DNA of 64,000 nucleotides, taken from assembly GCA_026066175.1 (NCBI GenBank), contig GCA_026066175.1_4721.2; one strand, written 5' to 3'. The stretch is from a phage. The notes beneath the pieces were generated by a model that did not search any database, was not told the origin of the DNA, and saw only the letters and a list, made by a program, of their open reading frames with translations. The translations under genes were made by a program, and so were the position numbers. This document shows positions 2,121 to 33,383 of this stretch, piece after piece (positions within the stretch are counted from its first letter, which is position 1; every line of letters begins with the position of its first letter).

Positions 2121-4718
2121 TTATAACGTGACTGTACCTAATTTGGTTGTCTTATTGAGATTAATGACAGATATCTGGGTATCGCTGGTCGTGATGGTGC
2201 CAATATTAACGCGCTGTCCTTTATCATCCTCTTGCTTGTGGATGGTTAACTCCAGCTCTAACTGGTTACCGTTAGGAACAACGGAAACGTACCATGTTTT
2301 ATTACCCGGGAAGCTATTATAGTCTTTTAGGTTATAATGGCCTTTAGGTAAGGTCATGACCTTACCGGCAAACAAGCAAGTGATGTCTTCGTTGACGTAA
2401 ACGTCGAAACCGGAAGAAGCGATGACTGTTGAGGTCATTATTCGAGACGTAACCATATCAGTAATGTAGTCATCGATTGTGGTACCTATGACATTGAATA
2501 CTTGCCCACCGTTACCCATAATGGCCGACTCGCTAGTGTTTACGTAGCCGATACCCCAAGTCGGATGAATGTTCCAGCGGTACCCACTGTTTTGTAAATA
2601 TGTATACATGTCCTCATAGGCCGCATTCACCCAACTACCATCACTTTTTCGTCCAGCCCTAAATTGGAATGTGTTGCCATTTCCAGATGTCCCTCGGCCA
2701 AGCGGGACATGTCCCGCTACTAACCAACCATCCGTACTTTGCATATATGCGAACGAACCGTACGCTCTGTTATCAGCCCAAATATTCACGGTATCAACAC
2801 GCTCAACGTAGGCGATTACCTTTTGTACGCCAGTTATAGCGATTGAACCCTTGCGTGCCGACACATTAACTTCTGCGATTACAACACCCATTTTACGCTG
2901 GCTGCCACTAAACCCCAATACAACCATTAAACACGGTGCGTTTGTTGCTTCAGGAGGGATTGTTATCGATTGTTTCCAGTCAGTGATTCCGTTGAGTTTT
3001 GTTCCAGTGTATGCGTTCCAGACGGTTTGTCCAGCCGATTTCAGATTCTGTTCAGAAATAGAAATGCTATCGCCCTCAGGGATTAACGTGTCGTAATTAA
3101 GACCGGTGTTACTGGATAGACGATTGTCATTTAAGTAAGATCCACTGAGTGTGACGTTATTGTTACGATATATTGTCAAGAATGGCGCAGCCAGAGCGTC
3201 TAATACCGTAAAGTTACTTGATGGCATGAAACCATAGACATCGATACCATTACCGCGATAATGGTAGTTTGTCCAACTACCTTGATAACTTACGGTACGC
3301 CCATCGTAGTGACCTTGTCCAGCGCTACTGCTAGACAACGTGTATATCTTGGTTGCTGATAGAAATGCGAGATACCCATGAGCCGCCAAAGCTCCAACAA
3401 CCCTGTCTTTTATCTTTAACCAAGCTGAAGTATATAACGTACTGTCGGGATTCATTTTGGCTATTTCATCGTAAGCTGTGCCTGCGAAGTTTCCGATAGT
3501 GTACGTACGTATATCCGGCTGTCCGTTATTGTCGTTCTGTACAGCAATTACTTGCCCAGAATCATTGATATCGATATTACCGATACAGTTGTGAGCCCCC
3601 CACACCCAATATCCATCTTTATAATTGGATTCTCCTTGTGTGAATGTTGATGGTCCTCGCCACGCGATGCCGTTCGATTCGGCGTAGTAGGTCGCTTGCC
3701 CCGATCCGGGATTCATGGCGTATTTGTTATTGGTTGGGTCAAAATCGATGTAAAAATGATGCATTCCTTGACGTTGATGATTGTTCTGATCATTTGTCCA
3801 CCACGATGAACCGACCAGAATTCGCGCTTTACCATTTTTTACAGTGGACCATAAACGTATTGCAGCGCGCCAGATGATTTGACCGATCCCGTTAGACGGG
3901 AAACTATTCGCACTTATACGGTTACAGACTATGAGTTCGCTGCTATTGTTTACTTGAGTCCCTTCAATTGTAACACCGTTTATGTTAGTGATCAGTGTTG
4001 CCGATACACTACCCCCTGTAGGGGCGATAGAGGAACGTTGAACGGTGTAAATTTTTAGTGATAATTTATAGCCGTCCCTAACAGCAATCCCAATGTAAAT
4101 AGTCCCGTTAATTTCCCAACAACAAACATCGGGCATCGTTTCTTTGAAATCGGATAAAGCACCATCGATATACATTGCAACGTGTTTACTGGCATCGAAT
4201 GTACCATCCGTTAACGCGATGAACATTTTGGCGTTATTACCGTTGATATCAGCCGCTAATCCGAGTAGTATGTTGTTCTGATGACAGTAGATGGCTTTAG
4301 GTGCTAGATCCAACATAGCCGGTTGGTACTGTCGGCTTGTCGGTATTACGCTAGTAACTGCACCATTTTGATCCGTTTTACAAATAACGTAATATACGCC
4401 ATGTATGATGCTGTTTGTCGCCGACCTTAGTAGGACAATCGTCCCGTCAGATTCACGACATATACCGTAATGACGATAGTCGGTGATTAAGCCGATAGCA
4501 CCATCAGCAGAGCCTTCAATTGCCAGAGGAAAATAACTTTGGTCCCCAACCTGTTCGATATCGGTTACGTCGATATCGATGTATTTTTCCATCTCAGTGT
4601 TGAACTCAGCGGTACTGTAGGCACCGAGATCGCTCGCCTTTAGTCCCGTTGGGTTGTCGCGACTGGCGATACGCGTAGTAACGCTACTCACCAGTTCGCT
4701 GAACTTTTTCATTGCCAT
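2121..4718 (-). CDS. large tail fibre/tailspike-like protein (putative receptor-binding protein)
   Basis: 865-aa ORF inside the fibre cassette. N-terminus (SELVSSVTTRIASRDNPTGLKASDLG) carries the same RDNPxxVTxAQ-type motif as the neighbouring fibre genes, followed by a large non-repetitive domain. SD gaggtg 5 nt upstream of ATG. Confidence 0.55.
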   Translation of the reverse strand: MAMKKFSELVSSVTTRIASRDNPTGLKASDLGAYSTAEFNTEMEKYIDIDVTDIEQVGDQSYFPLAIEGSADGAIGLITDYRHYGICRESDGTIVLLRSATNSIIHGVYYVICKTDQNGAVTSVIPTSRQYQPAMLDLAPKAIYCHQNNILLGLAADINGNNAKMFIALTDGTFDASKHVAMYIDGALSDFKETMPDVCCWEINGTIYIGIAVRDGYKLSLKIYTVQRSSIAPTGGSVSATLITNINGVTIEGTQVNNSSELIVCNRISANSFPSNGIGQIIWRAAIRLWSTVKNGKARILVGSSWWTNDQNNHQRQGMHHFYIDFDPTNNKYAMNPGSGQATYYAESNGIAWRGPSTFTQGESNYKDGYWVWGAHNCIGNIDINDSGQVIAVQNDNNGQPDIRTYTIGNFAGTAYDEIAKMNPDSTLYTSAWLKIKDRVVGALAAHGYLAFLSATKIYTLSSSSAGQGHYDGRTVSYQGSWTNYHYRGNGIDVYGFMPSSNFTVLDALAAPFLTIYRNNNVTLSGSYLNDNRLSSNTGLNYDTLIPEGDSISISEQNLKSAGQTVWNAYTGTKLNGITDWKQSITIPPEATNAPCLMVVLGFSGSQRKMGVVIAEVNVSARKGSIAITGVQKVIAYVERVDTVNIWADNRAYGSFAYMQSTDGWLVAGHVPLGRGTSGNGNTFQFRAGRKSDGSWVNAAYEDMYTYLQNSGYRWNIHPTWGIGYVNTSESAIMGNGGQVFNVIGTTIDDYITDMVTSRIMTSTVIASSGFDVYVNEDITCLFAGKVMTLPKGHYNLKDYNSFPGNKTWYVSVVPNGNQLELELTIHKQEDDKGQRVNIGTITTSDTQISVINLNKTTKLGTVTL

Positions 4719-15497: not shown

Positions 15498-18416
15498 ATG
15501 AACGATATAAATAAAGGGCGCGTCGCCCTCGAACGTCAAATGAGCAATAATGACGTTGCGAAGGCACTCATGAACAAATTTGTCGCTCCTGCTCCGCAGT
15601 CACGTCTTTATAACACACGTGAAGCGGAAGGAGCGAGCGGTCGTTTCGGGTTAGTTGTTCCCGACCAGATGACGATGAACACGGTGACGCGTGCGACCGC
15701 AACAAACGTCGAGGATAATAAAAACATCCTCGAGTTGTTCCCTGAACTTAAACGCGTGATGCAGATCTATGTTGCCGCGTTGACGAACCCTAACGATCTT
15801 AAGACGGTCGAGATGTTCATCGACAGCGAAGATTTCCCCGGCAGAGTCGCAGAAATCGTTCAGCCGATGATCGATACCATCGACACGCATTTTAAGAATA
15901 TCTATAAAATAAAGACGCTTATCCCTCGTATCATCGAAGATGTCTTCTTTATCAAGGGCAGCTATAACTTCGTTGTTCTGCCTGAAAGCACGCTCGATCG
16001 TGCTATTAACGGCAACGGCCAACTGAAACTCGAAGAATACGGATTTAAAAACAATCATTTCGCCAGCTGGGGGCTGCTGGGGAATGACAGCCGTATACGC
16101 AGTCAACATCAGTTACCGACAACGGTTTCGATGGAAGATTATTTTTCAGGCGTTAACGAAACCATCCCGTACGATCCGGTTGTCCGTATCGATAGCATCA
16201 AGTTTACCAACACGATGCTCCGTGATAAAGACGGTAAATTCATTGAAGCGAAGGTCGATATTCCGGATATGGTTACGGTTGTTGATAACCCAGACATCCT
16301 TCGCATGCCGATTTTACACCAACGTCGTGCGTCAACAGCCGTGCAACGTGCATTACGTGCAAACACCTTAGGCGGTAACGGCCTGGTGACGTTATCAGGC
16401 GATCCGACGCAAACCGCGAATCGACGTGAGCTGACACAAGAGCAAGTTAATGAGATCTGGAATAAACTAAACATCCAACGTCATACCAAGGTATCGCCTG
16501 TGTACGCACTAGCAACCCCGGATACCCTTGACCGTCAAAGCGTTGGTCATCCTGGCGTAATGCATGTACCACCTGAGTCATTAGAACCGGTTCATGCGCC
16601 TGGCGATCCAGAGAACCATATCGGTTATCTCGTCCAGCTGGATGAATTCGGTTACCCAGTACGTTTGGTTGAAGATGCTGCGTATTACAAACAGCTGGAA
16701 GGTCGACTGTCGAAGATCACGGCGGATATTGCCGGTACATCAAGCAACGGAATGGCGAGTGAGATGATCGGGGCAGCGAAGAACATGGTTCAAGGTACGT
16801 CGTGTAACCAAGTCGATATGTCAGCGTTTGTCTCGTCGTACGAATCACTGATGCAACGTTATATCGTTGAACGTATCGTTAACGGTTACCTCGGCAGTGC
16901 GGTAGAAATCGGTGCAACGTCGTCGTTCTATCTGTCGATGCTTGCCCGCAGTCTTGCTCACAAGCAAACCCGTGTTTTGTTTATTCCTCGTGAGATGGTG
17001 ACATACATCGCCTACGAATACAACAAATACGGGATTGGACGTTCCTTGCTTGAAAGTACGAAGATGATCTCATCGCAACGCGCGATGCTCATGGTTCAGG
17101 AACTGATGGCGAAAATCAAAAGTTCGTTGAACTATACGACGCTGAGCGTGATGCTCGAAGACACCGATAGAAACCCGGTTGATACCGTTGAGCAGGCATT
17201 GCACAGTTTTGCTCGTGTTTATCAATCTGGTTTCCCGTTGGGTGAAACCAACCCAATGGATATCATCAATGCATACGAACGAAGCTCGATTCGATTGAAG
17301 GTTGAAGGGAACAACCCACGCTTCCCGAAACTGAACACCGACGTTAGCGTTGAACAACGTAACTACCAATCCCCGGATGATGAGCTGATGGATCGTTACC
17401 GTCGTGATCATTTCATGGGTCTGGGTGTTTCTCCAGAGATCGTTGATACGTCCTACCAATCTGAATTCGCGGCGTCGGTGATTACGGCTAACGCGATGCA
17501 AGAGAAACAGTTCACGGTTTGTCGTGAGGTCGTCACGAATGGCTTAACTGATCACATCAAGAAGTATACGGCTTATAGTCCTGTGCTTCTGACGTCGTTA
17601 CGCAATACCGTTCGCGCGAATATGTCAAAGCTCTCTCAAGCGCAGCTGCAACAGCTCTTTGGTAGCGACTTCGAAAACGGTGTTATTCGTAACGTGAACG
17701 CGTATCAGGAGATTGATGATCGATCGGTGACAATGGATCTGGATTACACCAAACCGGAAGTCCAGGAAGTGATTGCTGACGCTTATGTCTCCATGTTCTT
17801 AAACAGCTTGCAGGTACGTTTACCGGATAGCAACGCGCGTCGCCTTGAAGATCAGGTACGTGAATATAATCAGTACAAGGAAGCGATTACAGCACAACTT
17901 GATGATTATTTAACACCGGATTATGTCATGGGTCTGGGTGGGGTCGATGAAACAACCCTGCAGATGATTCGAGCGTGCATCATTGGTACGGCGATGAGGA
18001 CATGGGCGAAAGAAAACAACTTCAATCAGGAGCTGGCCGATCTCTTTAGTCTCGACGATAAGAAGAATGCCGTCCAGGATTGGAAACGTGCATCCATGGA
18101 GCATATTGAAATCATGGGTAAATGCATGGGTGATTTCGCACTCTATATCCAAAACCTGACGAAGCAAATCGAAGAGAAGATGGGCGACCAAGCACAAGAC
18201 GGTAGCGTTTCATCTGACGGCTCATGGTCATCGGATTCCGGTTCGGATAGCGGTTCTTCCGATGATTTCGGTGGTGGTGATGACTTTGGTGGCGACGACG
18301 ATTTCGGAATGGAAGAAACCGAAGAATCCACCGAGGAAACCACTACGGAAGAAACAACCGATGAAACTGGTGATAATGCCGCATCAGAAGACGATACCGC
18401 AGGTGATATTGTCTAA
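15498..18416 (+). CDS. large hypothetical virion protein with acidic DDFGG-repeat C-terminal tail (portal-like size; function unverified)
   Basis: 972-aa ORF; SD aaggag 9 nt before ATG; C-terminus SSDDFGGGDDFGGDDDFGMEETEESTEETTTEETTDE... is low-complexity and acidic. Confidence 0.6.
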   Translation: MNDINKGRVALERQMSNNDVAKALMNKFVAPAPQSRLYNTREAEGASGRFGLVVPDQMTMNTVTRATATNVEDNKNILELFPELKRVMQIYVAALTNPNDLKTVEMFIDSEDFPGRVAEIVQPMIDTIDTHFKNIYKIKTLIPRIIEDVFFIKGSYNFVVLPESTLDRAINGNGQLKLEEYGFKNNHFASWGLLGNDSRIRSQHQLPTTVSMEDYFSGVNETIPYDPVVRIDSIKFTNTMLRDKDGKFIEAKVDIPDMVTVVDNPDILRMPILHQRRASTAVQRALRANTLGGNGLVTLSGDPTQTANRRELTQEQVNEIWNKLNIQRHTKVSPVYALATPDTLDRQSVGHPGVMHVPPESLEPVHAPGDPENHIGYLVQLDEFGYPVRLVEDAAYYKQLEGRLSKITADIAGTSSNGMASEMIGAAKNMVQGTSCNQVDMSAFVSSYESLMQRYIVERIVNGYLGSAVEIGATSSFYLSMLARSLAHKQTRVLFIPREMVTYIAYEYNKYGIGRSLLESTKMISSQRAMLMVQELMAKIKSSLNYTTLSVMLEDTDRNPVDTVEQALHSFARVYQSGFPLGETNPMDIINAYERSSIRLKVEGNNPRFPKLNTDVSVEQRNYQSPDDELMDRYRRDHFMGLGVSPEIVDTSYQSEFAASVITANAMQEKQFTVCREVVTNGLTDHIKKYTAYSPVLLTSLRNTVRANMSKLSQAQLQQLFGSDFENGVIRNVNAYQEIDDRSVTMDLDYTKPEVQEVIADAYVSMFLNSLQVRLPDSNARRLEDQVREYNQYKEAITAQLDDYLTPDYVMGLGGVDETTLQMIRACIIGTAMRTWAKENNFNQELADLFSLDDKKNAVQDWKRASMEHIEIMGKCMGDFALYIQNLTKQIEEKMGDQAQDGSVSSDGSWSSDSGSDSGSSDDFGGGDDFGGDDDFGMEETEESTEETTTEETTDETGDNAASEDDTAGDIV

Positions 18417-18828: not shown

Positions 18829-21420
18829 TTACTGTTCGTCGCGTTCCAACAGGTACTCGGAAGCCGTAACACCGTTTACAGTACGGATGGCTTTCAGACG
18901 TGTATCATCGTTCAGAATCACGGTAACAGACTGCAGACCTTTTACCTTGGTTTCGAAGGTTTTGAATACCTGGTCTAACATACGTGCGATGCTTGGGTTG
19001 GTGGCAGCTGATGCGTGGGTATACCCACTCTGATTAAGTTTCAGAATCTTCGCGTTGGTTGGTACACGAACGATAACATGCGGACGCATAGCGAACACGC
19101 TGTGGTTGAACCAGTACGCATCCGGGCTGTCTTCATCGGTCACGAGGTCTGGATGGGTCTGCATATCTTCAGCTGCAGCATCCGCCAAACGACGTTCGAT
19201 TTCGTCAGCATCCAGAGAACCATCTTTCTCCAGCTCAGCACGATACTCATCCATGATTGCCGCGCGACGCTCTTGATTTGCGACCATCTTATCATGAGCC
19301 GCATTCAGGTAATCGTTCATGCTGTAAAGCTCTGCCATGGAAAGACGGATGTTCCACTGACCAACACCGTCACGATTGCAGTAGAGGCATTTCAACATAT
19401 TGCCCCAGGTGTGATAGCAACGGGTGAACTCGTCTTCGATGAACTTCTGATCCATTTTAAGTTCGTTGATCAGCCAGCTATACAGCTCACCGACATCATC
19501 TACGAAGCTTGCAATGGTGGTTTCAGAGAAGTTCTTAGGTACAACACGCTTGATCCATTTGTTGATGTCTTTGGTCATGCTGTCGTTCAGGAAATGCCAG
19601 ATACGCAGAGGGATAACCTCTCTGTGTTGTTGCATGACCTGACGATAGGCTGACACACCTTCAATATGACCTTTATCAATAGACAGGGCATCCAGGAATT
19701 CCTGGATAGCATCAAGCTGTTTATCGGTGTAGGTTCCCAGGTAGGAATTGACTGTGGTCAGGAACGCCAAAGCATCGTTCTGGTTGACGTCGGTATTGGT
19801 CTGCTGGATGATCGCAACCGTCGCTTTGGTTTCAGCGTCTTCGATGCTGGATGCCGGAACCATGTCAGTGACAGTGAACAGTTTCATCTCACGCTGTTCG
19901 CCAACAACAATCGGTTCACGTCTAACCGGTTTGTTCAGGCTAACACGCACAACTTCTGCTTGCGCGATACGATCCCATTCTGCCATTTCCAGCTCCGCCA
20001 TACGACGTGCGGTTGGATCTGTTTCAAGTTGAATGTATTCCATTTCTTCCACCGTAAGTGAGGTAATATCAACAATGGTTTCATGAAGAATTCCGTTTTC
20101 GTCAATGCGAGCGCGACGAGCGAATTGCCTGAAGTCATACGCGGTTGGCCAACGGCTATCAGGCGCGTAGTCTTTGGCCTTCAGACGCATTTGCATGAAT
20201 TCTTCATGGTGAACAACACGACCGTATTGCTTCGCATCTTCGGTCGCATCAAGAGGGTCAACCGTTTTGGTTACCGTCGCAGGACGTACGCTACGTACCG
20301 GCTCAGGTTTTACCTTCACGGTTTCAGGTTGAGTAGGTGCTTTCTGCTCAGCCTTAACATGCCATTTCGGTTCTTCGTACTGCTCAGCGAATTGCTCAGC
20401 TACCGCAAAGATATCGTTGATGCCGCCAATATCTCCATCCGGATGGGTTGAGTAAATACGCGTTTGTGGTGCTTCCTGACGCGTTGCTGCTGGAGCAGGT
20501 TTATCGTCAACTGGGTCATCATCACCAACATCGTACAAACGGTTGAACGCACACTCCTTCGAATCCATATACGAAGGTGCTTGCTGCTGAACAACCGTTG
20601 GTCGAGGTTGTGTGCCGTATCCTGGCATTGTCGGAGCCATACCACGCATAACCGCTGGATTAGGTTGGTACTGCGGCTGAGGATAAGCTCCACCGTACGT
20701 GTTATACACAGGTTGTTGAGGTTGACCGTATCCGGCGTTGACCATCGCGTTTGCTTGCGGTCCGCGATAGGTCATTCCCAACTGCGTTACCTGCGCTTTT
20801 AACGCACGTGTCTTCTGCGCGATTTGATTCAGAGTCCCACCTTGATTCAGTTGTGTATACTTATTCGCTGCTTCCGGGTTAATGCGCGTTAATTCCTTTG
20901 CACGATAATACTCAGGATATTGATTGGCCTCAAAGAGCCACTGTACAAGATGCATAAGTATCGTTGTACGTACCGCGGTGTCGATAATCTGATCGACTGA
21001 TGCATTCTGAGGCGCTGGGTTGATATAAGAGAATACGTTCCAGCAGCAGTCCTCAACAAGTGACTCCATCGCCTCGTTGTTATTGGCGTAACGTGCCACG
21101 AACTGTGTTTGAATATCGTCTTGCTGAGCATGCTCTTTCAGGACATTAAAGATAGCCTGACGGATTTTGACGATATTTCCTTCGTTGGTGATGAACTGGT
21201 AGTTCTGCTGATATGCTGGATTAGGTTGGTATTGCGGTGGTTGTTGGTAACCGCCCCCGTATTGTGGATAAGCCGGTTGCTGGGGTTGGTACGGAGGTTG
21301 TTGATATTGCGGTTGCTGGTACTGTTGTTGACGCACCTGGTCAGCTGCAAATCGAACCGTGCTTGCGTACGGGTTCTCGCTATAGCCCATTTGTTGGTAT
21401 ATGTTGTTACCGTTATACAT
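18829..21420 (-). CDS. hypothetical protein with two Q/Y/P-rich low-complexity (prion-like) segments
   Basis: 863-aa ORF; residues ~28-75 (QQYQQPQYQQPPYQPQQPAYPQYGGGYQQPPQYQPNPAYQQNYQ) and ~225-270 (GYGQPQQPVYNTYGGAYPQPQYQPNP...); SD aaaagga upstream. Confidence 0.7.
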   Translation of the reverse strand: MYNGNNIYQQMGYSENPYASTVRFAADQVRQQQYQQPQYQQPPYQPQQPAYPQYGGGYQQPPQYQPNPAYQQNYQFITNEGNIVKIRQAIFNVLKEHAQQDDIQTQFVARYANNNEAMESLVEDCCWNVFSYINPAPQNASVDQIIDTAVRTTILMHLVQWLFEANQYPEYYRAKELTRINPEAANKYTQLNQGGTLNQIAQKTRALKAQVTQLGMTYRGPQANAMVNAGYGQPQQPVYNTYGGAYPQPQYQPNPAVMRGMAPTMPGYGTQPRPTVVQQQAPSYMDSKECAFNRLYDVGDDDPVDDKPAPAATRQEAPQTRIYSTHPDGDIGGINDIFAVAEQFAEQYEEPKWHVKAEQKAPTQPETVKVKPEPVRSVRPATVTKTVDPLDATEDAKQYGRVVHHEEFMQMRLKAKDYAPDSRWPTAYDFRQFARRARIDENGILHETIVDITSLTVEEMEYIQLETDPTARRMAELEMAEWDRIAQAEVVRVSLNKPVRREPIVVGEQREMKLFTVTDMVPASSIEDAETKATVAIIQQTNTDVNQNDALAFLTTVNSYLGTYTDKQLDAIQEFLDALSIDKGHIEGVSAYRQVMQQHREVIPLRIWHFLNDSMTKDINKWIKRVVPKNFSETTIASFVDDVGELYSWLINELKMDQKFIEDEFTRCYHTWGNMLKCLYCNRDGVGQWNIRLSMAELYSMNDYLNAAHDKMVANQERRAAIMDEYRAELEKDGSLDADEIERRLADAAAEDMQTHPDLVTDEDSPDAYWFNHSVFAMRPHVIVRVPTNAKILKLNQSGYTHASAATNPSIARMLDQVFKTFETKVKGLQSVTVILNDDTRLKAIRTVNGVTASEYLLERDEQ

Positions 21421-21454: not shown

Positions 21455-23251
21455 TCAATCGATTATGTCACGATCGTTAATTTCTACAATTTCTTCATCG
21501 AATCGACCGACGTCTTTCTTCAAGCCTGCGTTTGTTGCTGCAACGTCATTTGCGATTTGTGGGGTAACGATTAACCGACCACGATCGTCAATCGGTGCGT
21601 ACATACTGAACTTCTGGCGTCCGGTTGGTTCGGAGTGCGGAAGATTCAGATAGCTCGCGCAGAACGGGATGGAACCGCTCACCAAACGACTCTCGTCAGC
21701 CAATGCGGCCCCGCCCGCATTTTGACTCTGGAGAACAACATGTGTACTTACTTTGAACAGCATGCAGTCACCAGGTGATTGAATCGAGGTTGCCACTTTC
21801 TCGCGTTTATCACGATTGCTCTGGATGTTGAGAATCGCTTCTGTTGCAACTTGATTGCGTAACGCTTTTTGTACATCGCGATTGGTCATCTCTTTCCGGT
21901 TGTTCTGTCGTTTACCACGTTCAGTGGTTTTAAGATGGAACCCCAGTTTAAAGATGCTCTTACGCACATCCTCCATGACGTATTCCAACACCATCAGTTC
22001 CTTACCGAACATCGTCGTGGTGTCGACACGACTCATTTCGATAGTGACGTTATCAATCAAATACGCCATGAATTCGTAGAAGTCGTCGCACGGAATATTT
22101 TCCTGTTTGAACTTCTTCTGTTGAATTTCGTCAACGTAAAGATCGAGGCTGTCGATGTGGTGGTTTACATCACGCAACAAACGCGCATCCGCATTGTTGT
22201 TATTAAAGATAATCAAACCGAGTAGCGTACGCCAGTGGTCTGTCGCATTCGCGAACTCTTCAACCGGATAGTCTTCTGGAAAACGATCGTAATAACGGTC
22301 GATGAGATAGAGGAACGCACCGACAAGACCGAGCACAATACGTTCCGTGCCGCCACGTCTTACCGCGATTTGAATATCAGGATGTTTATAACGTACCGCG
22401 CTAACGCTACGACTCTTACCGCTTTTGCTAATACTAAAGCCTTTAGGAATAACGCCCATGGTGCGATAGATTACCCATTGGTCGCGCGGAAAATCACGTT
22501 CAGCGAGATTCCGTCCGGTTATTGCTTCGACGCCTGCAAAACGCCGGAAACATTCACCCACGCCATATTTCGCAAAGAGATAATGGCCCAACGTGGTTAC
22601 GCTGGTGTGGTTGATGTTGTCCCCGTTCACCTTGCTTTGTTTGGTAAGGTGATAGATTTGCGACCAGGGCAATGACAAGTAATGTCGATAATCATTACCG
22701 GTTGGTGTATCATTGCTCAGGAACTGATACGGCGTACGCTTAACGGTGATTTTGTCACGCGGAAGCATGATGAACGCCATGTCTTTCGTGTAACTGATTA
22801 CCGGGTCAGCAAGCACCGCACTGAGAATGAAGTTCGCACCACGTAGACGCATCTTGCCACCCTGACCTACCGCAGGCAATAGGAGAGGATGCCGGATGAT
22901 GCAGTAATCCTTGCCGGGTTCACGACGGTCACCTGCTTCCATCGCGCCATACCAGCGGAATTCTAACATCACCATGAACACATCGGAAGGCGCAAGGTCG
23001 AACGTCAGCTTACCGCTATCCTTCCCTTTGGTTTTCTTTCCTCCGCTTAAGTAGTGAAACTGTTCGCGGGCCATACAACGACGTAGGCCATGATACACCA
23101 GATCCTTAGGTAAACTATCTTTGCTGTTCCGCCAAAGACGATCGACGTAGGACTCAACATCTTGCATCTTATCGACGACGATGTTGCGTGCTATCTTCTC
23201 GTTCATCTTCGGTGCAAGCTCAGCGACAGCTTTGCAGAATCTAGGATCCAT
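21455..23251 (-). CDS. hypothetical protein
   Basis: ~598-aa ORF; the ATG at 23251 has SD aaggag with a 6-nt spacer (the track start at 23254 is a GTG only 3 nt from the SD). Confidence 0.65.
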   Translation of the reverse strand: MDPRFCKAVAELAPKMNEKIARNIVVDKMQDVESYVDRLWRNSKDSLPKDLVYHGLRRCMAREQFHYLSGGKKTKGKDSGKLTFDLAPSDVFMVMLEFRWYGAMEAGDRREPGKDYCIIRHPLLLPAVGQGGKMRLRGANFILSAVLADPVISYTKDMAFIMLPRDKITVKRTPYQFLSNDTPTGNDYRHYLSLPWSQIYHLTKQSKVNGDNINHTSVTTLGHYLFAKYGVGECFRRFAGVEAITGRNLAERDFPRDQWVIYRTMGVIPKGFSISKSGKSRSVSAVRYKHPDIQIAVRRGGTERIVLGLVGAFLYLIDRYYDRFPEDYPVEEFANATDHWRTLLGLIIFNNNNADARLLRDVNHHIDSLDLYVDEIQQKKFKQENIPCDDFYEFMAYLIDNVTIEMSRVDTTTMFGKELMVLEYVMEDVRKSIFKLGFHLKTTERGKRQNNRKEMTNRDVQKALRNQVATEAILNIQSNRDKREKVATSIQSPGDCMLFKVSTHVVLQSQNAGGAALADESRLVSGSIPFCASYLNLPHSEPTGRQKFSMYAPIDDRGRLIVTPQIANDVAATNAGLKKDVGRFDEEIVEINDRDIID

Positions 23252-23290
23252 CACACACTCCTTACAGAAAGTTGCTTAAGCAGATTAAAG

Positions 23291-24673
23291 TTATTTCTTC
23301 GATGACACCTTCTCAAGAATCTTGAAAAAGGTCATACCTATACCGACAACGGCTGCGGTGATGCTTGCTGCAGCTTTCCAAACATCGACGTTACGTTGAC
23401 GTCGTGCTTCTTCCGCTTCACGTTGTCTTTTTGCCTCTTCATCACGTCGGCGTATTTCAGCAGCGAATTCCTCATGCTTACGTTTCGCGTCTTCGTCTCG
23501 GCGACGCATTTCAGCGATAAGTTCATCGTGCTTACGTTTCGCGTCTTCATCGCGACGTTTGAGTTCAGCCAGATGGTCATCTTGCATTTGTCGCCGAAGT
23601 TCGTCCTGACGTTTCATTTCGGCTCTATGCTGCTCATCACGCAGTTTTGCTTCAGCGCGATGGGTCTCTTGCATCCGTTCGATGATGTCTTTATGTTCAT
23701 CCGCCATACGTCGCATTTCAGCCATCACCCCTTTAAGGGTTTCTTCTGATGACTTACGTTCGTAGCTACGCTGGTCGAAATCATTTTTGTAGGCTTCCTT
23801 CTGGATGGGATCGCGCCAATGCAATGCCGATTCGCGGGTTGGAAAAACATTGTATTTCCACATTTCTTTTTCCAAATCTTCTACCGGTACGAAGACGGAA
23901 TCATTATTCCCGAAGGTAACCAACATCCCTGGAGCACCTGCCCCGTTCGTTGGTTTTATTTCGAACGCTTTCCCCAAGACGTTAACCCATAAGCTGTACG
24001 GATTATGGAAGTCTGGTGGCGTCCAATGGATGGTGAGCTGTGTTCCGAGAATCCGGAACCCCTCTGGTTTTCCTGTTAAACTTCGCGCACATGTTGCGAT
24101 ATAGGGGTGATCAATCCCTTTCGTAACATGGTCAGCGCTTTTGTATTCTCCTTTAACTTTTACGATTGCCACGTTAATTTGCGCGACATACACAGGTTGA
24201 TTAAAATTTAAGGCTGTTAGGTCTATTCGACATATCTCGTCCAAGGTGTCGTACCAATCTTCCTGGTCGAGCAACCTGGGTTTTCTCTCGACGCACGTAA
24301 TGCGTCGGATATGGGGTTTTCTTACCGCATAACCGCTTCGGTTTTTAACGCCCAGTATATCCCGTCGTCTACCGTCGTAGACGAAGTTCTTGAACGCGCC
24401 ATTCGCATTAGATATGTCATGGCTGTCAACTATTACAGGACTACGAAATTTTGAACGTCGTACGATCCTGAATGTGTTACCCTCTTCGACCCTACCTGGA
24501 ATGTATTGGAACATATTGTCGGATGTAATGACCAATACCGTATGCCCAGACTCATTAATACAACCCCACCCTAACTCTAAGTCATATAACGGTTCCTGGT
24601 ATCCGTCGATGCTATACGTGCCTGTGCCATCCCACGGCTCAAACGGCGTATCGCAAACCGGCATAGAGGACAT
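23291..24673 (-). CDS. C-terminally membrane-anchored protein with ER/K-rich charged helical stalk
   Basis: 460-aa ORF with a strong SD (gagggagga). C-terminal third is highly charged and repetitive (RRDEDAKRKHDELIAEMRRRDEDAKRKHEEFAAEIRRRDEEAKRQ), followed by a hydrophobic segment AAASITAAVVGIGMTFF and a basic tail. Confidence 0.65.
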   Translation of the reverse strand: MSSMPVCDTPFEPWDGTGTYSIDGYQEPLYDLELGWGCINESGHTVLVITSDNMFQYIPGRVEEGNTFRIVRRSKFRSPVIVDSHDISNANGAFKNFVYDGRRRDILGVKNRSGYAVRKPHIRRITCVERKPRLLDQEDWYDTLDEICRIDLTALNFNQPVYVAQINVAIVKVKGEYKSADHVTKGIDHPYIATCARSLTGKPEGFRILGTQLTIHWTPPDFHNPYSLWVNVLGKAFEIKPTNGAGAPGMLVTFGNNDSVFVPVEDLEKEMWKYNVFPTRESALHWRDPIQKEAYKNDFDQRSYERKSSEETLKGVMAEMRRMADEHKDIIERMQETHRAEAKLRDEQHRAEMKRQDELRRQMQDDHLAELKRRDEDAKRKHDELIAEMRRRDEDAKRKHEEFAAEIRRRDEEAKRQREAEEARRQRNVDVWKAAASITAAVVGIGMTFFKILEKVSSKK

Positions 24674-24885
24674 TGATTATCCTCCCTCAAACAGACAACA
24701 TACATGCATAATGCACGTCCCTTTTCTTGTTATCATCACAACGACAGTCGACGGTTTCAGCATCATTCTTAGCGCGAGAACGACCTTACGTGTTGTCTAT
24801 GCCTTTTTTCATTGAAGGCTTCTGTCACCTAGGTAATGTAAGCGTCAAATTTTTTCTAATCTAACCCAGCATAACAGCATAATAA

Positions 24886-24915
24886 CCTCCCTCAGCCCGT
24901 AAGGACCGAGGGAGG
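24886..24915. terminator. degenerate copy (3) of the conserved hairpin element, downstream of the capsid-candidate gene
   Basis: cctccctc-agcccgtaaggacc-gagggagg with cataataa and ttatg flanks, inside the 340-bp non-coding stretch after the stop at 25015. Confidence 0.5.
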
Positions 24916-25014
24916 TTGACTTATGTATCACGGTGCCGGATGAATGTCCGGTGTAATGAAACCATCCGCAACGTTGTTTTCAAGAACTTCATCCAACGAA
25001 GCAGCTCCGGTATT

Positions 25015-27237
25015 TCAGTTAGTCTGAACCGGCAGCTTGATGTTTTCAGTGTAGACCTTACGCAGGTTCACAACGTTGATCAGACCCAGCAGCGGGCAGT
25101 TGTTCACGAAACGGCAGCGCGGCTGAACCATGGTTTCTTTAGAAACCTGACCGTTACGAGTAACCTGAGCAACGGATACCAGTTCCGGTACGTACAGGAA
25201 CATACCGAAGGTCAGCGGATCCGGAGAACCCTGGATACCACGAGACAGGGTCACGAAGATCTTGTCGCGCAACATGACGTTCGGGTTGTCTACAACCACG
25301 AAGTTGAAGCTTACACCCACGGTGCGGAAGTCACCATCGGTCTGCAGGAACTGCGGGATGTAGTTGTCGGTTGCTACTACGCAACGCGGTTTCTCATCAG
25401 CGTTGGAAGACAGCAGCTGCAGAGCTGGCTGATAACCAGACTCGGAGTACATGCGGTACGCCATTTCACGAATCACGTTCATGATCGCAGCGGATACTTC
25501 AGCACGACGTTCTGCAGTGGTGGTACCCTGAACGGATTTCTCCAGGTCCAGATCGATTTCTTCGAACCACGGACGAATCAGGTAACGACCGAAACCTTCG
25601 ATCTGAATGTCACCGAACTGACGGAAGCGAGAAGTTGCAACCGCTTTCAGGGCGTCTTTGTAGCTGAACAGTTTCTCAACCATCAGGTTGTCGAAACGTG
25701 CGTTAGCTGCTTGGATCAGAACATCCAGGTCAGCAGCGTTTTCTTCCCAATCCAGCGGACGAGGAATGGAGAACGGAGCCAGCAGGCCGATTGCGTAACG
25801 TTCTTGCTTCATGTTGAAGTCAAGATGTTTACCGCGTTCACGACGGTTGCTGTTGTTACGACGGATACGCAGTTCGTAACCCACCAGTTTGAAGCTCAGG
25901 TCTTCAGCCAGATCTTTGAATTCCTGGCTCTTACGCGGTTGTTCGATGTTGTCCTGGTCAACCAGACGATACAGTTCAGCGGTAGCGCCATTAACACGCA
26001 GACCCGCTTTCTCTACGTTGGAAGAACCGTAAACTTCGATCGCCAGCTGAGCAGCAGATTTCGCATCGATGATGTCCTGCAGCGCTTCAGCTTTCGCACC
26101 TTTAACGTCAACGGTGTTCTCATCAACGAAGATGGAGTGGGTGTCGAACGCCAGGGTCATTTTGCGGAAGTCGCCTTCCAGGGATTTCTGGAAACCGTTG
26201 GTGATCAGACCGGATACGTCGAACGGAACGTAAGAGGTTTTGCTGTGCTTGGTGGATTTAATTTCCACCAGGATTTTGGTCAGCGTGATCTGAGCATCCA
26301 GCGCGTCAGTGTTGTCGCTGTAACCGTTAGCCAGAATGCTATCGTCTTCAGCGATACCGATCATGTCGATCAGTTTATCAACCGCCAGGTAAGACGTTTT
26401 GTAAGTAACGCCTTTGATTTCGATGTCGCGCGGAGCAACGATGGTTTTATCAACGAAGTACTGCGCGTTAGCATCGTCAGCACGGTAGATCGGATGCAGA
26501 TCGGTCACGTCGTTGGACAGAACGTCGTTGTACATGAACGCATCCAGCAGCGGACGACGTACCCAATCAGCCGGAGTACCATCACCGTTACGACGCAGGT
26601 GGTTGAACACCAGCGGACGACGGAAGGAAACGTCATAACCGATCTGGTTCGGAGCCAGAACGATGGTGTTGTACAGTTCGTTACCCATGCGGCTCAGACG
26701 AGACGCCTTCACGTTGAACACAACGGAGTACGGCATCATGTCACGCAGTTCTTTCTGGTCGTAGGACAGCTGAACCAGTTCTTCAGATTCACAACCGCAG
26801 GAATCCGCAGCCATCATGACGAAGTTAGCGCTGTCAACATCACGGCCGGACGGCGAGGTGCTGATGTTCATGGAACGTGCTTGTTTAGCATATTCCACCG
26901 GGTTGCCATGTGCCAGCATGATCAGCGCTGCAGCGCGAGCCTGCTGTGCGTTCATGGTGAACAGCTGTTCTTCAATACGTTGCTTCTCTTCCGGAGTTGT
27001 GGTTTCGAAGCCCAGCATGGACAGAACCGGTTCTTCAGCTTTACGGATGTCGCTGCTGAAGCTCTTAACATCCATTTCGTTAACCAGTTTGTCCATGGAT
27101 TTGAAATCAACCTTAGAAGCAGATTCCATAGACAGGAAGGTGTTTTCCAGACCTTTGTCTGCTGGTTTGCTACCATTAGCGGTCAGGAACTGGCGAGTGG
27201 CCGCGACCTGTTGGCTAAGAAGGGTTTTATCATTCAT
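25015..27237 (-). CDS. putative major capsid protein (highly expressed virion protein)
   Basis: 740-aa ORF with markedly optimised codon usage (CTG, CGT, GGT, AAC, TTC, GAA) compared with its neighbours; size matches jumbo-phage major capsid proteins; SD taaagga. The opposite strand carries a long stop-free antisense ORF, typical of highly biased genes. Identity not verified by similarity search. Confidence 0.5.
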   Translation of the reverse strand: MNDKTLLSQQVAATRQFLTANGSKPADKGLENTFLSMESASKVDFKSMDKLVNEMDVKSFSSDIRKAEEPVLSMLGFETTTPEEKQRIEEQLFTMNAQQARAAALIMLAHGNPVEYAKQARSMNISTSPSGRDVDSANFVMMAADSCGCESEELVQLSYDQKELRDMMPYSVVFNVKASRLSRMGNELYNTIVLAPNQIGYDVSFRRPLVFNHLRRNGDGTPADWVRRPLLDAFMYNDVLSNDVTDLHPIYRADDANAQYFVDKTIVAPRDIEIKGVTYKTSYLAVDKLIDMIGIAEDDSILANGYSDNTDALDAQITLTKILVEIKSTKHSKTSYVPFDVSGLITNGFQKSLEGDFRKMTLAFDTHSIFVDENTVDVKGAKAEALQDIIDAKSAAQLAIEVYGSSNVEKAGLRVNGATAELYRLVDQDNIEQPRKSQEFKDLAEDLSFKLVGYELRIRRNNSNRRERGKHLDFNMKQERYAIGLLAPFSIPRPLDWEENAADLDVLIQAANARFDNLMVEKLFSYKDALKAVATSRFRQFGDIQIEGFGRYLIRPWFEEIDLDLEKSVQGTTTAERRAEVSAAIMNVIREMAYRMYSESGYQPALQLLSSNADEKPRCVVATDNYIPQFLQTDGDFRTVGVSFNFVVVDNPNVMLRDKIFVTLSRGIQGSPDPLTFGMFLYVPELVSVAQVTRNGQVSKETMVQPRCRFVNNCPLLGLINVVNLRKVYTENIKLPVQTN

Positions 27238-27386: not shown

Positions 27387-28007
27387 TCACAAACGACGCA
27401 GGCGATAATGGATGGAACGATTGGTGCAATATGAACGGAACAGCGGTAATTGCGCAACTTCCGCAAGACTCATATTAATTCGCAGATGTTCGATAACCGC
27501 GCTGTAGTTATCGGCGATACGATCGCTCAGTAACTCTTCTGCCAATAAAGGAAGACAATCGACAACGATGGCGATCACATCCTCATTAACATAACGCACC
27601 CGAACATTGAGTGGACGTTTGTCTGGGCCGTAAGTTGGATCCGCCAAACGACGTTCAATATCGCGTGGATAGCTCGTCAGTAAATGGTAATAACCATTGT
27701 CATAACGATTGATGTACTCACACAGCACATCAACATTCTTCTCTGGCGGCAAACCTGTTTCGTCATAGTGATACGCAAACATACCACCAAGCAGGTTGTT
27801 AAGATGAACCGCAGGGTTCGCTTGTTCGTGTTCTTTCGTGATGAAGAAAGGCACGTTCTGGGCTGCGAAATAAAAACCTACATCATTGGGCGATAGTATG
27901 CCGAAAAGACTTTTAGGGTCTAATAACACCTGTAAGTCATCACGCGCATTTCGAATAATCGCGTGTTCTACCCAATTCGGAACGACGAGATATCGGAGTT
28001 CCTTCAT
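27387..28007 (-). CDS. hypothetical protein
   Basis: 206-aa ORF; SD agagg 8 nt upstream. Confidence 0.6.
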   Translation of the reverse strand: MKELRYLVVPNWVEHAIIRNARDDLQVLLDPKSLFGILSPNDVGFYFAAQNVPFFITKEHEQANPAVHLNNLLGGMFAYHYDETGLPPEKNVDVLCEYINRYDNGYYHLLTSYPRDIERRLADPTYGPDKRPLNVRVRYVNEDVIAIVVDCLPLLAEELLSDRIADNYSAVIEHLRINMSLAEVAQLPLFRSYCTNRSIHYRLRRL

Positions 28008-32894: not shown

Positions 32895-33299
32895 CTAGTC
32901 TATCTTAAGCCAGATTGATGGTAAATGGAAATAGACACCGTCGTCTATTTGTTTTTGTGTTAACGGGGTTGGAAGTTTAGTGATGATGTTGTCGATCGAT
33001 TCCTCAATGTCACTTGTTAGAACGTCGATGTGGTAATAGCGAGCGATGCGTCCGTTACGTTCTAGCCAAAACAGACGAACGAAATCACTATTTTTATTAA
33101 TCGCATTCATAAACACGATTTGATGAAGCAGGATCATTCTTGACGAGGGGTAATCGTCAGGACGCGGAGTCATCACCAGTTCCCAACGTTTCCGTCGCAC
33201 GCCTTTTTTGAATTGACTCGTTACATTTGAACCACTTTTACCTAAGTTTATAACAAATTGCTTTAGACGATACGGTGTGTTTCTGTAAATATCGGTCAT
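32895..33299 (-). CDS. hypothetical protein, paralogue family B (N-terminal-domain-only member)
   Basis: 134-aa ORF; N-terminus MTDIYRNTPYRLKQF and C-terminal ...HLPSIWLKID align with the first ~130 aa of the two longer paralogues and stop at the LP(S/T/D)IY(L/I)K domain boundary. Confidence 0.55.
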   Translation of the reverse strand: MTDIYRNTPYRLKQFVINLGKSGSNVTSQFKKGVRRKRWELVMTPRPDDYPSSRMILLHQIVFMNAINKNSDFVRLFWLERNGRIARYYHIDVLTSDIEESIDNIITKLPTPLTQKQIDDGVYFHLPSIWLKID

Positions 33300-33383
33300 T
33301 GATTATAGCTCCAGGTTATTATCACTAAGGTAATATAGTCGTGAAATAAACTGGAGTAATAGAAATAATAAGACGGCATAAGA

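Follow-up and report, generated by a model that had tools for sequence, protein, structure and literature searches.

A stalked, non-virion core protein of nucleus-forming jumbo phages behind a chmA-class promoter motif

The window analysed here, a 64,000-nt stretch of phage DNA (contig GCA_026066175.1_4721.2 of GenBank assembly GCA_026066175.1), carries at 23291..24673 on its minus strand a gene whose product is the ortholog of Goslar gp040, phiKZ gp122 (NP_803688) and PhiPA3 gp138 (YP_009217217). The protein is not part of the virion. It joins a globular N-terminal domain (N-domain) to a long helical stalk and a short apolar C-terminal segment, and its gene lies behind a promoter motif of the class that precedes chmA. 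Our favoured reading, held tentatively, is that of an early stalk protein whose C-terminal element contacts a lipid surface and whose N-domain works with components of the phage nucleus.

A core gene of nucleus-forming phages

By nucleotide comparison (92% identity with Escherichia phage Goslar), the window belongs to a Goslar-like phage of the Chimalliviridae, the nucleus-forming jumbo type. The 64 kb stop short of the chmA region; Goslar itself encodes the nuclear shell protein. The original prediction, made from the sequence of the window, had described a 460-aa protein at 23291-24673, and the list of open reading frames (ORFs) bears this out, with an ATG start and the minus strand as the coding strand. 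The further elements that it described, a globular N-domain, then a long charged helix, and at the C-terminus one hydrophobic helix with a basic end, are all present:

24681..24688, minus strand: strong Shine–Dalgarno sequence GAGGGAGG, read from the sequence, with the ATG 7 nt further on
23816..24673, minus strand: N-terminal beta-rich globular domain, aa 1-286
23381..23809, minus strand: helical stalk, aa 289-431, defined by the AlphaFold2 (AF2) helix, charge-pair statistics, a/d occupancy and indels
23475-23585, minus strand: 54-nt (18-aa) tandem repeat in the stalk, encoding the RRDEDAKRKH copies
23381..23479, minus strand: juxta-anchor segment, aa 399-431 (..EEFAAEIRRRDEEAKRQREAEEARRQRNVDV)
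23324..23380, minus strand: Trp432-Lys and the 17-residue apolar segment AAASITAAVVGIGMTFF (434-450), a putative membrane anchor by hydropathy
23294..23323, minus strand: basic C-terminal tail KILEKVSSKK, net +3, from the translation

Goslar gp040 (YP_009820725, annotated as hypothetical) shares 85.4% amino acid identity with the window protein over 100% of gp040. In the core-genome table of Prichard et al., Goslar gp040 is grouped with phiKZ gp122 and RAY gp001 as cg35, listed as 'hypothetical' and flagged as unique to chimallin-encoding phages. The identity of PhiPA3 gp138 was set by its accession, YP_009217217.1, and its GenBank gene number. The protein thus belongs to a catalogued family and represents no new entity, but a variant specific to its clade, in which the ER/K stalk is greatly expanded and length-polymorphic and the tail more transmembrane (TM)-like.

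Distant members of the family come into view at the level of profiles and structures. An exhaustive phmmer search matched P0011 (5.9e-200), P0015 (1e-27) and P0016 (1.7e-23), and a PHROG search matched PHROG 7727 (3.5e-5), which holds the RSL2, Eowyn and PCH45 proteins; these cross-hit PHROG 15024, the phiKZ family. Foldseek against BFVD returned 28 matches at E<=0.001 (best 2e-10), all uncharacterized proteins and nearly all from named chimalliviruses, including 201phi2-1, Eowyn, RP12 and Deimos-Minion. Sequence search by itself hides the family: among 50,697 phage records, Goslar was the only one that tblastn retrieved with the protein or with its two distant homologs. Sequence-profile searches of Pfam, NCBIfam and PDB returned no significant match for the protein.

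Position supports the same assignment. The order major capsid protein (MCP), cg35 gene, non-virion RNA polymerase (nvRNAP) subunit, all on one strand, was found in 10 phages (Goslar, phiKZ, PhiPA3, Eowyn, RSL2, PCH45, Aphrodite1, KpLz-2_45, PS2 and EL) and one metagenomic contig. The genes at this position in phiKZ, PhiPA3, Eowyn, RSL2 and PCH45 align with the window gene and share N40, G234, G249 and W432, as do those of Aphrodite1, KpLz-2_45, PS2 and EL.

P0004 (460 aa) is identical to the window protein over residues 1-315 and differs at 2 positions over its full length. It is one of several near-identical copies of this virulent jumbo-phage gene (P0002, P0004 and P0012-P0014) that were deposited with assemblies of Salmonella enterica and E. 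coli O157 isolates. Copies of the P0004 type sit on contigs of up to 244 kb, and two of the isolate-assembly records start at an internal Met (327 and 345 aa). Their occurrence fits reports of lytic phage genomes within bacterial assemblies.

The original prediction would have fallen had the protein been a soluble virion component. In the Goslar virion table obtained by liquid chromatography–tandem mass spectrometry, gp040 (YP_009820725, HOV27_gp040) has zero matches and the positive controls were found; the same table lists gp038, gp039 (~0.14 copies) and gp041 and reaches a sensitivity of ~0.1 copy per virion (nvRNAP, DNA polymerase). A role as a virion component is thereby refuted.

The PhiPA3 ortholog turns up with ChmA or ChmB in three published datasets. 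A ChmA-GFP pull-down yielded seven phage proteins, PhiPA3 gp138 among them, and gp138 also appears in a GFP-ChmB pull-down and in ChmA miniTurboID labelling, where the authors gave it no predicted function. In the phiKZ antisense screen, gene 122 ('Uncharacterized') scored positive for plaque-forming over colony-forming units (PFU/CFU) and positive for ChmA, and its knock-down strongly altered phage transcription at 30 min.

Stalk length and the conserved C-terminus

With the family alignment, AF2 modelled one uninterrupted helix over residues 289-456 (predicted local distance difference test, pLDDT, ~85-91 over 310-400). The long helix is 55-58% D/E/K/R, and residues 300-425 contain R 20%, E 19%, D 10% and K 9%, together 58%. 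Over residues 310-430, compared with shuffled sequences, opposite-charge pairs are enriched (z = +5.7 at i/i+3 and +4.4 at i/i+4) and like-charge pairs are depleted (z = -4.1 and -3.6); for the whole 143-residue stalk the charge-pair z is +8.2. The ER/K-type charged helical stalk of the original prediction is borne out by predicted continuity, composition and charge pairing alike. The stalk is amphipathic at residues ~310-337, where a/d hydrophobic occupancy is 5-6 of 8; the remainder is ER/K-rich and resembles a single alpha-helix, with occupancy of 2-5 of 8 over most of the stalk. An L/I/M/F periodicity of 3.6-3.65 residues persists in it.

Tandem Repeats Finder reported a period of 54 with 2.1 copies and 77% matches at 23475-23585. 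RRDEDAKRKH occurs exactly at residues 373-382 and 391-400 and in the degenerate form RRDEEAKRQR at 409-418; because this third copy is degenerate, the earlier count of three repeats was slightly generous, with two exact copies standing.

Spacer length, measured from F277 (the last conserved aromatic residue of the N-domain) to the Trp, falls into three ranges:

phiKZ, PhiPA3, PCH45, Eowyn and the Vibrio and Aeromonas phages: 56-68 residues
RSL2, the EL-like phages and two metagenomic relatives: 96-119 residues
Goslar clade: 154-201 residues

The window allele, at 154 residues, is the shortest in the Goslar clade (the others have 172-201). Goslar-like proteins of 460, 478, 489 and 507 aa differ by stalk indels of 11, 18 and 18 residues, and in these strains the N-domain is 90-100% identical and the C-terminal ~60 residues are ~97% identical. 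No other part of the protein is so poorly conserved or so variable in length as the stalk. The idea that it holds a domain at a fixed distance from the membrane does not survive this variation, which runs from 154 to 201 residues among near-identical strains and from 56 to 119 in other clades; because its length varies across the family and between strains, the stalk is a rapidly evolving spacer and no fixed ruler. The natural alleles of 154, 172, 183 and 201 residues offer ready material for a ruler test. Only the Goslar clade and its two nearest relatives carry the ER/K signature (>=49% charged, <=16% L/I/V/M/F, charge-pair z 3.6-8.3), and the linkers of other clades resemble ordinary amphipathic or coiled-coil ones.

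The N-domain carries the family-invariant residues N40 (in an NxS/T motif), G234 and G249. It has no assignable fold: AF2 with family alignments of 27 and 37 sequences gave no confident model, its beta-rich character being predicted at low confidence. In every family member an N-domain of ~245-300 aa is joined through a helical linker to a short apolar segment at the C-terminus. This three-part architecture is retained in P0015 and P0016 at 27-34% identity and in the same-position gene of distant chimalliviruses, and is therefore not due to chance. No published description of this family-wide arrangement of head, stalk, Trp and apolar tail was found in the literature searched.

Towards the C-terminus conservation rises again. 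The juxta-anchor is the best conserved stretch between neighbouring clades, with 67% identity to P0015 (N-domain 31%, stalk 17%) and 97% to Goslar-like proteins. At least 90% of 35 family members keep W432, whose distance from the C-terminus is always 18-36 residues, and K451 is nearly invariant. Between them lies AAASITAAVVGIGMTFF, uncharged, rich in small residues and the only hydrophobic segment of the protein; the ten best Kyte–Doolittle windows all fall at 429-439. The protein has no N-terminal signal and no further candidate TM segment, and this single apolar run is followed by 10 residues to the C-terminus.

A chmA-class promoter between capsid and polymerase genes

The gene lies in the following surroundings, listed in the direction of its transcription:

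25015..27237, minus strand: phiKZ-type MCP, the upstream neighbour (Pfam PF25620, E = 4.5e-217)
24884..24917, minus strand: 15-bp hairpin after the capsid gene, a terminator or 3' stabiliser (-38.4 kcal/mol, z = -6.05)
24825..24858, minus strand: early-class (chmA-type) promoter motif AGAAAAAATTTGACGCT-TACATTAC-CTAGGTGA, ~25 nt past the hairpin
21455..23254, minus strand: nvRNAP beta-type subunit, the downstream neighbour (Goslar gp039, phiKZ gp123; PHROG 2943, E = 9e-120)
18829..21420, minus strand: third gene of the trio, at the position of Goslar gp038 and phiKZ gp124 (synteny in 10 phages)

The motif, in the form TTTGACGCT-TACATTAC-CTAGGTGA, is nearly identical to that upstream of Goslar chmA (GAAAAAAATTTCAGGGT-TATATTAC-CTAGGTGA) and resembles the sequence upstream of Goslar gp175, the phiKZ gp068 homolog. 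Its extended version occurs in 2 copies in the window against 0.04 expected; enrichment is limited to this version, as the bare octamer TAYATTAC is not enriched (6 vs 3.6 expected). In Goslar the motif is identical at 37/37 nt within a diverging intergenic region. In its form, the phiKZ gp121-gp122 promoter, AAAAAAAGTTTAAGATC-TATATTAC, matches the promoters of gp054/chmA and gp068. Wicke et al. reported that the primary transcription start site of PHIKZ054 carries the early-promoter motif, consisting of an extended -10 box and an upstream T-rich element. The layout of a hairpin followed by the motif also precedes the gene in EL, where the promoter is annotated, and in Eowyn, and the motif lies directly upstream of the gene in PCH45 and Aphrodite1. 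A sigma-70 promoter scan around the gene found nothing. No published description of a chmA-class promoter on cg35 in phiKZ and Goslar-type phages was found in the literature searched.

The hairpin stem is held in Goslar despite substitutions, and would part the late MCP transcript from the cg35 gene. Downstream, the nvRNAP subunit gene follows on the same strand after 36 nt, and the two genes are probably co-transcribed; the product of 21455..23254 is 98.7% identical to Goslar gp039, labelled nvRNAP in Goslar Table S4. Neither the gap between these two genes nor that between the nvRNAP gene and the gp038 homolog contains a minus-strand terminator-like site, the only one of the region lying inside the gp038-homolog ORF. 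The original prediction had called the protein unusual in a structural region. This concern dissolves, as a hairpin follows the capsid gene, the gene has its own chmA-class promoter motif and the nvRNAP gene comes next with no terminator-like site between them, which together would place it in an early unit apart from the late structural genes. Judged from these signals, cg35, the nvRNAP beta subunit and gp038 would form an early transcription unit of the virion RNA polymerase (vRNAP) class beside the late structural genes. In Goslar, chmA and further nucleus genes are expressed from the EPI (early phage infection) vesicle at 5 min post infection, and the MCP is late.

Several further observations concern this intergenic region. 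The position of a strong GC-rich hairpin after the MCP gene is conserved in Goslar-like phages, phiKZ, EL and Eowyn, with differing sequence (for example L005 ~3884-3910, L012 ~2873-2906 and L006 ~4253-4277), and the early-type promoter of the next gene always comes after it. In the Pseudomonas phages an extra small gene lies between the promoter and gp122/gp138 and overlaps the start of the latter: phiKZ gp121 (L005 4000-4452) and PhiPA3 gp137 (L013 2999-3532), of which gp137 is also among the proteins listed for ChmA miniTurboID. This small gene is absent from Goslar-like phages, which have instead a conserved ~155-nt 5' untranslated region (UTR). A 26-aa upstream ORF within this 5' UTR was dismissed, as Goslar does not conserve it. 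The one further exact copy of the extended motif in the window (TTTCACGACTATATTACCT; 33328-33346, minus strand) lies just upstream of a 134-aa ORF (32895-33299) among tail and baseplate genes, which suggests a second early unit within the structural region.

Other genes of the neighbourhood have features of their own. The gp038 homolog (18829-21420, minus strand) is 863 aa long, with a Q/P/Y-rich low-complexity stretch near its N-terminus (for example QQQYQQPQYQQPPYQPQQPAYPQYGGGYQQPPQYQPNPAYQQNYQ) and, at aa 567-656, a very weak match to a XerD-type N-terminal domain, which falls far short of the cutoff (E = 7e-5). The Goslar virion contains ~25 copies of gp038, and knock-down of phiKZ gp124, which has the same position, strongly perturbed transcription. 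The portal homolog (Goslar gp036; 15498-18416, plus strand) has a ~90-residue acidic tail rich in Ser, Asp, Glu and Thr (..SSDGSWSSDSGSDSGSSDDFGGGDDFGGDDDFGMEETEESTEETTTEETTDETGD..). Upstream of the capsid gene, the 206-aa ORF 27387-28007 (minus strand) corresponds to Goslar gp042 and has no Pfam or PHROG match; a 2026 Goslar cryo-EM preprint places gp042 in the capsid vertex-binding complex (55 copies). The Goslar annotation has, beside chmA, a group I intron (L014 19269-19645; Goslar 169269-169645) that adjoins an HNH endonuclease and interrupts the region of an nvRNAP beta' gene.

Candidate roles and comparison with known systems

In the reading that we tentatively favour, the injected genome would give rise to the protein early, at the same time as ChmA and nvRNAP subunits. 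Once translated, it would attach by its C-terminal element to the cytoplasmic face of the inner membrane or to the inner-membrane-derived EPI vesicle, as a tail-anchor in the Goslar clade and as a weaker amphipathic anchor elsewhere. The stalk, predicted to span ~20-30 nm (143-190 residues × 0.15 nm), would hold the N-domain out toward phage-nucleus components, and the membrane could in this way be coupled to the ChmA shell while the nucleus is being established or the EPI vesicle attached. The bracketing of the anchor by W-K and by K at the extreme C-terminus counts for anchoring. A link to the nucleus is favoured by the pull-down and labelling results for PhiPA3 gp138, by the phiKZ122 knock-down effects and by the lasting contact of the EPI vesicle with the ChmA nucleus in Goslar.

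The membrane tail-anchor of the original prediction holds up in part. The sole apolar segment does lie at the extreme C-terminus, and it is marginal for a TM helix in the window protein and weaker elsewhere. On an approximate, unvalidated centre-position scale, the best 19-residue window has an insertion energy of ~+2.8 kcal/mol; on the same approximate scale the tails of P0015 and P0016 come to +1.5 to +1.9 kcal/mol and those of other clades to +4.5 to +9 kcal/mol, except Eowyn at +2.8. Several further points also weigh against the favoured reading. The apolar run of 17 residues is short for a TM helix, and a tail of net +3 would have to be translocated, which would be unfavourable. In the EL, RSL2, PCH45 and Eowyn groups the run measures 10-13 residues, and in phiKZ, PhiPA3 and the Vibrio and Aeromonas phages it is broken by D/E/K and scores reach +5 to +9, so that a family-wide transmembrane anchor is unlikely. 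We therefore regard a tail-anchor as plausible, from hydropathy, for the window protein and not as a rule for the family; the tail may instead hold to the membrane more weakly, as an interfacial or amphipathic anchor, or serve as a helix that docks into a protein. On the side of function, the ChmA-GFP pull-down signal of PhiPA3 gp138 amounts to one peptide and one spectrum, its proximity-labelling entry comes without an enrichment ratio, and capsid proteins abound in the datasets that contain it. Polarity of the phiKZ122 knock-down is possible on phiKZ123, which starts 10 nt past the gp122 stop. The pLDDT of the N-domain, ~56, leaves no binding function readable from the model, and early timing is suggested by promoter similarity.

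A bolder proposal, which we consider unlikely, makes gp040/cg35 the missing physical link between the EPI vesicle and the ChmA nucleus, the two successive genome compartments. The protein would be made from the EPI vesicle genome, its tail would insert into the vesicle (or inner) membrane, its N-domain would recruit or hold the nascent ChmA shell, and the clade-specific, rapidly evolving stalk (8-30 nm) would set the gap between membrane and shell. In Goslar, more than 95% of ChmA shells adjoin an EPI vesicle; the nucleus assembles beside the vesicle, which stays attached to it and rotates with it, and the mechanism of attachment and hand-off is unknown according to the published account. If true, the link would explain both nucleus assembly beside the vesicle and the attachment and co-rotation of the two. 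More generally, cg35 is one of ~21 core genes exclusive to nucleus-forming phages, nearly all of unknown function. Its architecture and promoter turn an anonymous screening hit (phiKZ122, PhiPA3 gp138) into a specific, testable candidate for the open question of EPI vesicle–nucleus attachment and genome hand-over.

The strongest competitor, in our estimate rather doubtful, attaches the stalk to the shell itself: the tail helix and juxta-anchor would dock into the ChmA lattice, ChmB or an oligomeric bundle of the protein's own, and the N-domain would project from the nucleus and capture a cytoplasmic partner (capsids, ribosomes or mRNA). It accords with the presence of PhiPA3 gp138 alongside ChmA and ChmB in three datasets, and with a tail that in most clades is too short or polar for a TM helix. 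The juxta-anchor and tail are the most conserved region (97% in the Goslar clade, 67% against P0015) and near-identical within the EL-like and PCH45-like groups, and generic lipid anchors usually keep hydrophobicity alone. The promoter class shared with chmA further suggests that the two genes are co-expressed. However, conservation across the whole family is limited to the Trp, the Lys beside it and apolar character, a pattern typical of interfacial membrane residues; the pull-down signal is minimal; and stalked densities are not mentioned in the published passages on the shell that were consulted. Should the anchor bind protein after all, cg35 would represent a new class of stalked phage-nucleus appendage.

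It is improbable that the protein acts as a procapsid tether, marking the inner-membrane site of chimallivirus procapsid nucleation, much as the T4 portal–membrane initiator does, and left behind as capsids depart for the nucleus. Chimallivirus capsids do assemble on the inner membrane, the gene always lies directly downstream of the capsid gene, the protein is missing from mature virions, and the ChmB pull-down that contains gp138 is dominated by capsid and tail proteins. Yet the strong hairpin insulates the gene from the MCP, its chmA-type early promoter is one that neither the MCP gene nor the window's other structural genes share, and next in line is an nvRNAP subunit gene. Moreover, the effect of the phiKZ122 knock-down on transcription at 30 min would be unexpected for a head-assembly factor, and Pfam, PHROG and structure searches revealed no sequence or fold similarity to any head-assembly protein.

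Distinctly improbable is an accessory or assembly factor of an nvRNAP module with gp039 and gp038, for instance one that holds or delivers newly made subunits before nuclear import. The trio of cg35, nvRNAP subunit and gp124-like gene keeps one orientation in all phages examined, and knock-downs of phiKZ122 and phiKZ124 both strongly affect transcription at 30 min, although the former effect may be polar. Against this proposal, purified phiKZ nvRNAP consists of gp55, gp68, gp71-73, gp74 and gp123 and is not known to contain gp122, and a long stalk with a hydrophobic tail would be unexpected in a polymerase factor. A lysis-related membrane protein (holin, antiholin or spanin-like), a role that the original prediction had entertained, is scarcely credible: one hydrophobic helix and a helical rod are all that speaks for it, and the protein has no N-terminal TM segment or lipoprotein signal, so that its bulk would be cytoplasmic, its promoter is early-class, its gene is a core gene unique to nucleus-forming phages, and the Goslar endolysin gene gp098 (110.5 kb) lies ~68 kb from gp040 (41.7-43.1 kb). 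An anchor for PhuZ was set aside because cg35 is core to all chimallin-encoding phages and PhuZ is not.

Returning to the favoured membrane-attached stalk protein, its closest counterparts are its own relatives. The phiKZ and PhiPA3 proteins of the gp122 family share its position and three-part architecture, distant members matching at the profile or structure level, whereas the Goslar-clade stalk is 2.5- to 3.5-fold longer and of ER/K type, and the tail is more hydrophobic. Among bacterial proteins, E. coli ElaB, YqjD and YgaM are C-tail-anchored in the inner membrane and likewise have a cytoplasmic helical N-terminal part, one C-terminal hydrophobic segment and a basic end. They have, by Pfam and NCBIfam search, no sequence relationship to the window protein, however, whose segment is shorter and contains more Ala, Gly, Ser and Thr and whose stalk is far longer.

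For the stalk, comparison can be made with the ER/K single alpha-helix spacers of myosin VI/X, caldesmon and Kelch-type ER/K linkers. It shares their high E/R/K/D content, opposite charges at i/i+3 and i/i+4, few hydrophobic residues and one predicted helix. Unlike them, it keeps a sparse hydrophobic stripe (L/M/I/F/A) with an 18-residue period, and its first 30 residues are amphipathic. Because homologs in other clades have ordinary coiled-coil composition, oligomerisation is possible.

As for overall design, T4 gp40 acts with the gp20 portal in prohead initiation at the membrane. Like T4 gp20/gp40, cg35 would be a phage-encoded non-virion factor at the inner membrane, encoded beside head genes; unlike them, it has an early-class promoter, there is no sequence similarity, and portal binding is without support. 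Golgins and KASH-type linkers are eukaryotic tail-anchored long-helix tethers of organelles, and the proposed arrangement, in which a long rod links an anchor in the membrane at the C-terminus to a binding domain at the far end and so bridges two compartments, resembles theirs. The window protein has no homology to these tethers and, in contrast to them, belongs to a bacterial virus, is much smaller and would have as its partner a protein shell instead of a membrane.

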